DNA from: a virus
Lineage: Duplodnaviria; Heunggongvirae; Uroviricota; Caudoviricetes
Direction: 5' to 3' (one strand)
IMG/VR virus record: IMGVR_UViG_2609460354_000004
Coordinates: 1 to 35,426 of that record
Length of the DNA stretch: 35,426 nucleotides
The notes below the pieces were generated by a model. It saw only the letters and a program-made list of their open reading frames with translations, did no database searches and had not been told where the DNA came from. The translations under genes and the position numbers were made by a program. Below are positions 18,682 to 19,315 of this stretch, one piece after another (position 1 is the stretch's first letter; each line of letters starts with the position of its first letter).

Positions 18682-19163
18682 GCCTGTTTTGCGACCTCAT
18701 TCACTACGTCATTTTTTACCATCCGGCTGATAATCTGATTACGCAAATCGTCAATAATTGACTGCACTCTGTTTACTGCCATCGGTTTAAGCCCGGCATC
18801 ACGTGCCAGAATATTGGGGAGTTTTGCCAGTTCCTCGCTTACGATTTCCCCCCATATAGCCATCTCTTTTCGCACATCATCGGCGGGTATGAGTTGCGCC
18901 GTTTCCTGTTCGAACTTGAGGCGCTCACGTTCGGACTGATACCAGGCCTTACGGTCATGTGGCTCCATTTCTTCCAGTGATGCCGGAACGGGAAGATCAA
19001 GAAAACAGGTCAGAATGTCAGTCACCCGATAGAGTTTTAGCTTGTCATGCCCTCCGGCTGGCTGGATGTTTTTCAGCCTTGCCGCCGCAGTCTGACGACA
19101 TATTCCCGCTATCGCCGCCAGTTGATTAATGTTCAGCATCAGATTTTTCAGTTCTCGATCCAT
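18678..19163 (-). CDS. island terminase small subunit paralog (Nu1-type HTH)
   Basis: 161 aa from MDRELKNLMLNINQLAAIAGICRQTAAARL.... About 70% identical by eye to the prophage terS at 29834-30328, but the last ~20 residues are unrelated. The track ORF start at 19250 is an upstream extension. Confidence 0.8.
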   Translation of the reverse strand: MDRELKNLMLNINQLAAIAGICRQTAAARLKNIQPAGGHDKLKLYRVTDILTCFLDLPVPASLEEMEPHDRKAWYQSERERLKFEQETAQLIPADDVRKEMAIWGEIVSEELAKLPNILARDAGLKPMAVNRVQSIIDDLRNQIISRMVKNDVVNEVAKQA

Positions 19164-19315
19164 ACCCGCTCCAGAATGTTTTAAACATGCATCTTGCGAA
19201 CAACTTTCAGAAGAGGTCAAAAAATGCGCTATATGTTGAGCATAAAACAAGCAAAATTAACATACCAAAAATAAAAACACTTAAAATTCAATATCATAGA
19301 AAGATGATGATGACG

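Follow-up and report, generated by a model that had tools for sequence, protein, structure and literature searches.

A 55-nt block of identity at the cos-terS junctions of a helper-embedded phage satellite and its helper prophage

Introduction

The TerS-SP protein of Staphylococcus aureus pathogenicity islands (SaPIs) redirects the large terminase subunit (TerL) of the helper phage in a pac (headful) packaging system of gram-positive hosts. Satellites encoding their own small terminase subunit (TerS) or an Rpp protein are already known (PMC6092414, PMC6739421), and EcCICFT073, a gram-negative phage-inducible chromosomal island (PICI), has two functional cos sites, cos1-rppA and cos2 (Fillol-Salom 2018 and 2019; PMC6092414, PMC6739421). 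Helper-embedded PICIs were described by Tommasini, Mageeney and Williams (2023; PMC10111431). An R3-I1-R2-R1 layout is reported for lambda-like phages including Gifsy-1, with lambda R1 lying 20-35 bp before Nu1 (PMC9026076). Here we consider IMG/VR record IMGVR_UViG_2609460354_000004, positions 1 to 35,426 (the window), a lambdoid prophage that houses a satellite assigned to the helper-embedded PICIs. Satellite and helper each carry a terS gene, and the two genes begin with the same 55 nt.

We favor, with moderate confidence, the explanation that this block is the leader of terS with its ribosome-binding region, perhaps also a degenerate terminase site, and that, being neutral to specificity, it is held constant by selection and past exchange.

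An island of identity at two terS starts

A first-pass annotation of the window had reported a 54-nt identity, placing the copy at 19154-19207 in the island and the copy at 30319-30372 in the prophage. Both the identity and the placement are confirmed. The exact 54-mer occurs at these two sites only, with no third match at up to three mismatches and none expected from shuffled sequence, and reading both loci extends the identity by one base to 55 nt. The block and the genes it opens are as follows.

19153..19207, minus strand: block copy 1 (satellite), minus-strand sequence AAAGTTGTTCGCAAGATGCATGTTTAAAACATTCTGGAGCGGGTATGGATCGAGA, consisting of a conserved 5' core, an AU-rich stretch with a palindrome, a GGAG Shine-Dalgarno (SD) motif, and the ATG plus 8 nt of terS-A
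30318..30372, minus strand: block copy 2 (helper prophage), identical to copy 1 and ending 11 nt inside terS-B
18678..19163, minus strand: terS-A, satellite small terminase subunit, 161 aa, DUF1441, PHROG 141
29834..30328, minus strand: terS-B, helper small terminase subunit, 164 aa, DUF1441, PHROG 141

The block covers leader and terS start, as first described, although it divides into 44 nt of leader and 10-11 nt of coding sequence (ATG GAT CGA GA) rather than 42 nt and four codons. Read directly from the sequence, 7 nt separate GGAG from the terS ATG. The near-palindrome noted earlier is present on the minus strand as a 13-nt ATGTTT-A-AAACAT.

The contrast with the surrounding sequence also stands. 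Over 860 nt the two loci are 82% identical (alignment A1), and in the family alignment the flanks are 59-71% identical: the A lineage (satellite terS) and B lineage (phage terS) share 59% of the ~105 nt 5' of the block and 60-71% of terS, depending on the segment. A long uniform duplication, checked for by alignment of the two terS loci, is not what they show. At 30-50% divergence, a perfect 55-nt run has a probability of ~2e-6 or less, with ~700 start positions allowed for. The block is a true island of identity amid diverged sequence.

Small terminase subunits

By their family matches, both genes encode small terminase subunits. Both products match PHROG 141 "terminase small subunit" (E = 6e-58 for TerS-A and 7e-74 for TerS-B) and Pfam DUF1441, and terS-B agrees at 99-100% identity with terS as annotated in phages mEp460 and Ayreon. 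The divergence between the two proteins had been put at ~70% identity; the computed value is 65%. Their central regions are near-identical over ~30 residues, with RKAWYQSERERLKFEQETAQLIPA identical in both, and TerS-A is without the acidic C-terminal tail found in B- and C-type TerS. The terS genes are mosaic, one phage-type locus (L117) joining an A-type N-terminal half to a B-type C-terminal half. Unlike the lambda protein, TerS here belongs to DUF1441 / PHROG 141 and matches no solved TerS or Rpp structure by sequence: in phmmer searches against all PDB chains, TerS-A gave no Rpp or lambda TerS match at E up to 10, and TerS-B gave none at E up to 1, both at the level of sequence.

In the helper, terL abuts the terS-B stop codon, while in the satellite terS-A is followed by orf95. 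terS-A is confined to a capsid-cos-terS-A(-orf95) module, directly downstream of the ClpP-capsid gene, in 35/35 A-type loci examined. orf95 follows it in 28 of the 35, and in the rest the contig ends first or orf95 was undetected. Phage-type loci L117-L122 have an intact terL instead. orf95 itself (18394-18681, 95 aa, PHROG 1561, function unknown) overlaps the terS-A stop codon, at the position where phages have terL after terS. That it might be a remnant of the terL N-terminus was ruled out, as it has no similarity to Ayreon TerL and belongs to PHROG 1561.

Packaging sites

An 80-nt element occurs three times in the window (19317-19396, 21853-21932 and 30472-30551). When aligned to the joined ends of lambda, all three copies match as cosQ-cosN, with ACGGGTCC..CCGGTG followed by ACG, GGGCGGGAGCG(T/G) and CGCGG in succession; they are lambda-type cosQ-cosN sites with predicted 12-nt cohesive ends.

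19317..19396, minus strand: cos#1 (satellite), cosQ-cosN core, predicted 12-nt cohesive end GGGCGGGAGCGG at 19348-19359
21700..21932, minus strand: cos#2 (satellite), complete C-type cosQ-cosN-cosB, without the block
30472..30551, minus strand: cos#3 (helper), cosQ-cosN core, predicted cohesive end GGGCGGGAGCGT at 30503-30514
19208..19316, minus strand: satellite distal cosB (A-type), with putative R3-position motif TTCGTCATCATCATC, IHF-like site and inverted pair TATGTTAAT / CTCAACATA
30373..30471, minus strand: helper distal cosB (B-type), with putative R3-position motif TTCGTCATCACCACC (30458-30472)

Both block copies thus lie between a lambda-like cosQ-cosN-cosB and a terS start codon. The R3-, R2- and R1-like sites and those for integration host factor (IHF) are putative, having been picked by inspection in seven lineages. 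In each lineage examined, the interval from cosN to the block holds an R3-position motif (TTCGTCATCA.., KTCRNCATC), an IHF-consensus site and an inverted related pair. The IHF consensus is perfect in the helper (TAATAGATTGATA, 30441-30453; YAANNNNTTGATW) and in the C-type, and the inverted pair is GTGTCGAT / TTCATCAC in the helper and ATGTCGAA / TTCGACAT in PhiR40_1. The A-type cosB is 10 nt longer than the B-type immediately 5' of the block.

The arrangement resembles lambda cos-Nu1. cosQ and cosN align with the lambda ends, the predicted left end lies 187 bp (helper) or 197 bp (satellite) from the terS ATG as against 190 bp in lambda, and terS comes immediately downstream of the putative R3-position, IHF and inverted R-pair sites, with terL abutting the helper terS stop. 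Unlike in lambda, the R motifs are unrelated in sequence to those of that phage, and ~50 nt, the length taken up by the block, separate the last R-like site from the ATG instead of ~20 nt.

By the same inspection, the R-like elements seem to change together with the wing of TerS and its residues 21-22: lineages with TGTTAA / TCAACA have "IC" ahead of the recognition helix, and those with TGTCGA / TTCGACA have "LH" or "VH" there. No mismatch between distal cosB type and TerS N-terminal type occurs among 109 unique sequences. The idea that the block is a recombination junction between modules was rejected on this count, since the two types never disagree across it.

From cosQ to the terS start, cos#2 matches the cos of C-type helper prophages (terS WP_001389340; strains 2A, A5 and fS58a) at 93% identity over 233 nt. 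It has a GTG at the aligned position of the helper terS ATG and no terS after it. The satellite thus holds one helper-mimic cos (cos#2) and one private cos with its own TerS. The predicted cohesive ends differ in their last base, cos#1 having GGGCGGGAGCGG and both cos#2 (21884-21895) and the helper having GGGCGGGAGCGT, and a molecule cut at cos#1 and cos#2 would carry one mismatched end base. In a related satellite in the same terL site (L143; NZ_CP027454.1, strain 2014C-4423, locus 4526-5070), an orf95-like gene comes straight after a Stx2_95-like cos cassette and terS-A is absent; the cos module at this end of the island therefore appears to be swappable.

Some public records begin near these sites. 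Those of Ayreon (GenBank MF807953.1; L136 and L137) and mEp460 start within the block, 25 nt before terS, at an origin that is arbitrary and not a physical end. Just before cos, MF807953.1 looks misassembled, with terS-internal sequence joined to the right half of cosN.

Distribution of the block

Of 5,426 complete E. coli genomes, 997 contain the 55-mer (~1,160 copies in all), 781 of them at >=99% identity. The exact 55-mer is in 83 of 117 related IMG/VR and GTDB loci from both lineages, most of the others being 1-5 bases off. The species-level GTDB scan gave only 5 loci, and diversity was therefore drawn from IMG/VR and GenBank phages. The A-B identity of the block is 100%, with dozens of independent contigs on each side. 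The PhiR40_1/L120, L121 and L118 lineages, with flanks that differ by as much as A does from B, all retain the core of the block, GCAnGATGCATGTTTA, and TTCGCAAGATG persists even in mEp213-type phages with a TerS that is 57% identical. Judged against these outgroups, the A1/B state of the 5' half is ancestral and the changes in the A2 sub-lineage of satellites are derived.

Co-resident copies are seldom the same. Among composites with a B-type helper, the two copies are identical in one of four, the genome of this window, and three further composites with this terS-A island have a C-type helper cos-terS without the block. A1 satellites, which have the exact block, were seen only with B-type helpers (n = 2), and A2 satellites with B-type (n = 2) and C-type (n = 3) helpers, numbers too few for a conclusion.

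A gene-conversion patch private to this genome was excluded by the family-wide spread of the block and by composites in other genomes. The first-pass annotation had offered a recent recombination patch as one explanation; recency does not survive the 997 E. coli genomes, the ancestral 5' half or the mostly non-identical co-resident copies. Recombination fares better than its dating, as the next section describes.

What holds the block constant

The reading we favor treats the block as the junction between a packaging site and a packaging gene. Its parts would be those of a leader, namely an AU-rich unstructured stretch, the GGAG SD motif, a 7-nt spacer and the ATG plus 8 nt, preceded by ~20 nt of more deeply conserved 5' end. 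On either side would lie two elements that must match each other, the R3-I1-R2-R1-type sites of cosB and the winged-helix DNA-binding domain of TerS. The satellite would have a private pair of these (A-type) and the helper another (B-type), diverged to ~59-70% identity, while purifying selection and past exchange among co-circulating satellite and phage lineages would keep the block between them constant. It would be unchanged because it carries no packaging specificity, and striking mainly because both of its neighbors diverged together as the satellite gained a private specificity. The selected function would be translation initiation, possibly together with a degenerate terminase half-site (TTGTTCGCA / ATGTTTAA).

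Several points weigh against this reading. The A2 sub-lineage tolerates 4-5 changes in the block. The 3' half, which contains the SD region, varies in PhiR40_1, L121 and L118 and is shared unchanged by A and B only; selection alone does not, therefore, account for all 55 identical nt. The 20 nt at the 5' end (AAAGTTGTTCGCAAGATGCA) are too far from the SD motif for an easy ribosome-binding account, and they resemble degenerate R half-sites and may have a role at the level of DNA. The comparison of polymorphism with divergence speaks for the reading: the block has 7 polymorphic sites of 54 in the B lineage (close to the 20 of 159 terS third-codon positions) and 0 of 55 diverged between A and B (against 79 of 159), giving 7:0 versus 20:79 (Fisher p = 3.6e-5). 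It uses, however, non-independent sequences and a B set picked for 100% TerS protein identity, a choice that may depress terS polymorphism.

Because polymorphism in the block is normal yet A-B divergence is zero, exchange of sequence between satellites and phages probably contributed to the identity, and this much of the earlier recombination proposal is upheld. Taken to its limit, exchange might be the whole explanation, the block being a neutral recombination or gene-conversion tract between satellites and B-type helpers, which lie 11 kb apart in direct orientation, with no function of its own. We consider this distinctly improbable. Zero A-B divergence beside near-normal polymorphism within lineages is what such a tract predicts, as is a 3' half identical in A and B only; terS is itself mosaic (L117), and capture of helper late genes by such satellites is documented (PMC10111431). 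However, the 5' core is kept in at least five lineages with different flanks, outgroups included, and is therefore ancestral and constrained. The identity is also older than the A1/A2 split and extends across hundreds of genomes, co-resident copies mostly differ, and no recombinant has its breakpoint at the block. A neutral tract should moreover have decayed like the distal cosB, where within-lineage nucleotide diversity (pi) is 0.045, compared with 0.0085 in the block. Selection and recombination both appear to contribute.

If selection acts, it might act on DNA rather than on the leader. The block, or at least its 5' half, might be a functional part of cosB, an extra terminase-binding or anchoring site analogous to lambda R1 and read by both TerS proteins; in a variant, mixed oligomers, TerL or a host factor would be the reader, so that satellite and helper must both keep the block. 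This is unlikely, albeit the most substantial of the alternatives. The block occupies the position of lambda R1 (PMC9026076). Within it, TTGTTCGCA and ATGTTTAA resemble the R1/R2 elements TTGTTCGACA and ATGTCGAA of the lineage, TTCGCAAGATG is common to the block and to the R2-position element of the mEp213-type cosB, and the C-type cosB repeats TTTTCACCTG at the equivalent position, -30 to -17. Immediately 5' of the block, the sole length difference between the lineages amounts to exactly 10 bp, one turn of the helix. Yet this indel is a single event, and the likeness to R elements is degenerate and was judged by eye with no statistical model. A full putative R3-I1-R2-R1 set already lies upstream and seems to co-vary with the DNA-binding domain of TerS, whereas the block does not. 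Furthermore, A2 satellites alter three bases of TTGTTCGC, and most A2 copies also alter one base of the ATGTTT arm.

A more elaborate proposal, to which we give little credence, makes cos#1 a two-part packaging site, with distal R sites for TerS-A only and a shared 55-nt anchor that the helper terminase also needs. The users of the anchor would be TerS-B, mixed TerS-A/B oligomers or TerL. TerS-A could then act in the manner of Rpp, co-assembling with the helper TerS and bringing the helper TerL to the satellite cos, a behavior made possible because TerS-A shares its central region with TerS-B and does not have the acidic C-terminal tail.

Promoters, RNA structure and expression of terS-A

The first-pass annotation also took the identity as a possible sign of a shared regulatory site, here read as a promoter or operator centered on the palindrome ATGTTTAAAACAT and bound by a late activator, which would place satellite and helper terS under the same late control. 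Exact identity of the 13-nt palindrome in both copies speaks for it, as does a terminator just upstream of the satellite terS, which calls for some means of expression.

19398..19413, minus strand: terminator-type hairpin, GGCGGCGAUAGCCGCC plus U7, upstream of terS-A, with the satellite capsid gene on one side and cosQ#1 on the other

We nevertheless regard the promoter/operator explanation as very improbable. No sigma-70-like promoter was found on either strand around the island copy (18600-19500; 1.0 expected), and the single weak match at the helper locus (30446-30417) is outside the block and missing from the island copy, which leaves no predicted promoter shared by the two. The palindrome is unconserved in sister lineages: the PhiR40_1/L120 and L121 lineages have lost its right arm, and most A2 satellites its left arm (G to T). 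Lambdoid late genes are, in addition, served by one upstream late promoter and Q antitermination, not by gene-proximal activator sites.

The hairpin at 19398-19413 has a folding free energy (dG) of -16.2 kcal/mol (z = -4.4; 0/200 shuffles as stable). No promoter is predicted between it and terS-A, the island points the same way as the helper late operon that contains it, and upstream the prophage has an antiterminator gene. For these reasons terminator-resistant read-through, rather than a local promoter, probably drives terS-A, with the block uninvolved. Late expression of the island terS together with the helper is thus plausible, as had been suggested, by way of operon read-through and not of the 54-nt block. 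Read-through agrees with the cis-regulation proposed for helper-embedded PICIs (PMC10111431).

Similar structures occur elsewhere. A hairpin and U-run stand immediately 5' of cosQ at cos#2 (~21925-21950, minus strand; dG -18.0 kcal/mol, 0/200 shuffles), and another terminator-like site is at 21649-21665; the helper cos has no terminator-type hairpin 5' of cosQ.

The block might instead encode a structured RNA, a small RNA (sRNA) or a small open reading frame (ORF), which we judge to be the least probable of the explanations. An ATG CAT GTT TAA (MHV*) lies inside the block, and a plus-strand ORF (19187-19444) begins in the island copy and runs for 85 aa. The mini-ORF has no preceding SD motif, and the plus-strand ORF stops after ~23 codons in the helper copy by our own reading of the sequence and was dismissed as spurious, being unconserved between the two copies. 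A structured RNA or sRNA was rejected because the block has no Rfam match and both leaders fold worse than shuffled controls (z = +1.6 and +1.8; 192 and 197 of 200 shuffles at least as stable). Leaders less structured than shuffles would fit an open ribosome-binding region.

The satellite and its helper prophage

The window is a lambdoid prophage of mEp460/Ayreon-like type whose terL is interrupted by the 10.8-kb PICI.

~18021..28848, minus strand: helper-embedded PICI, att core CTGGATG(G/T)AGGGT at 28836-28848 and 18008-18020
28842..29834, minus strand: 5' part of helper terL (gpA ATPase domain), cut off by the satellite
16904..18025, minus strand: 3' part of helper terL (gpA nuclease domain), on the other side of the satellite

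The two halves are pseudogenes in the PGAP annotation. The intact terL of Ayreon maps to 30353-28836 and 18020-16326 with a 13-nt overlap, CTGGATG(G/T)AGGGT, which by this alignment is the attachment (att) core, and excision of the PICI should restore an intact terL like that of Ayreon. The same composite of helper and PICI is present in E. coli B1-56 at 99.8% identity, and diverged versions occur in other genomes.

On the minus strand, the PICI genes run in the order int, an AlpA-like helix-turn-helix (HTH) gene, Bro-N, Icd-like, DUF4222, D5-type primase, iterons, SSB, cos#2, ClpP-capsid fusion, cos#1, terS-A and orf95. Pfam matches cover the integrase domains, Bro-N, D5_N / Pox_D5 / DUF5906, SSB and the ClpP-capsid fusion; the HTH_17 match is weak and below the curated cut-off. 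A cluster of direct and inverted TGGTGAACAGTT-type iterons (22700-22920), just downstream of the primase gene, is presumably the replication origin of the satellite. The satellite fusion of ClpP protease and major capsid protein (19421-21334, 637 aa) is encoded by a gene with ~70% DNA identity to its helper counterpart (13215-15434, an ORF of 739 aa) and has a shorter N-terminus.

Other features lie elsewhere in the prophage. Between an Rz-like gene and the helper cos is a plus-strand ORF of 230 aa (30900-31592), possibly a moron gene, for which Pfam gave no match. Lipoprotein-like products with a TolA C-terminal domain are encoded by two genes at 33996-34391 and 34542-34970. Rfam STnc100, an sRNA family, matches 35081-35271 on the minus strand (114 bits, E = 2e-24), flanked by prophage tRNA genes just beyond the window and by the lysis cassette. 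A role for STnc100 as the leader RNA of the late promoter was not adopted, as tRNA genes intervene between the antiterminator gene and the match.

Comparison with known systems

By its insertion in terL, att core and zone order, the satellite is classed as a helper-embedded PICI. Like those described (PMC10111431), it has zones for integration (int and the AlpA-like HTH), Bro, replication (primase, origin, SSB) and late functions in that order, sits within a helper late gene (terL, gene A) in the same orientation, and has a short att identity block and a captured capsid gene. The sites in gene A are listed as A:Terminase_1:245 (PMC10111431), a profile that differs from GpA_ATPase. Unlike the model element 11capE, which is without terS (PMC10111431), this element has a cos-terS-orf95 module at its end and a pair of cos sites that differ in cosB type.

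EcCICFT073 offers a second likeness. It too has two cos sites with helper-like cosQ and cosN and different cosB, one of them followed directly by a gene for a DNA-binding protein of packaging specificity. Here a full-length TerS paralogue (65% identity to that of the helper) takes the place of an Rpp, with no sequence similarity to solved Rpp structures, and the second cos copies the complete cosB of another helper type. As with SaPI TerS-SP, a TerS paralogue is encoded beside the satellite's own packaging site and the helper TerL is relied on; unlike that pac system of gram-positive hosts, this is a cos system in E. coli.

Set among these systems, the block is an ordinary, widely conserved cos-terS junction within a known kind of satellite/helper composite, and its value is that of a marker of where packaging specificity begins and ends in such a pair. 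The interval from cosN to the block and the DNA-binding domain of TerS have diverged together, whereas cosQ-cosN, needed by the shared helper TerL, and the terS leader have not. The block also flags a subtype of helper-embedded PICI that has its own TerS and a second cos copied from another helper type, and its contrast with the flanks offers a clean basis for swap tests on how cos-type satellites privatize packaging.

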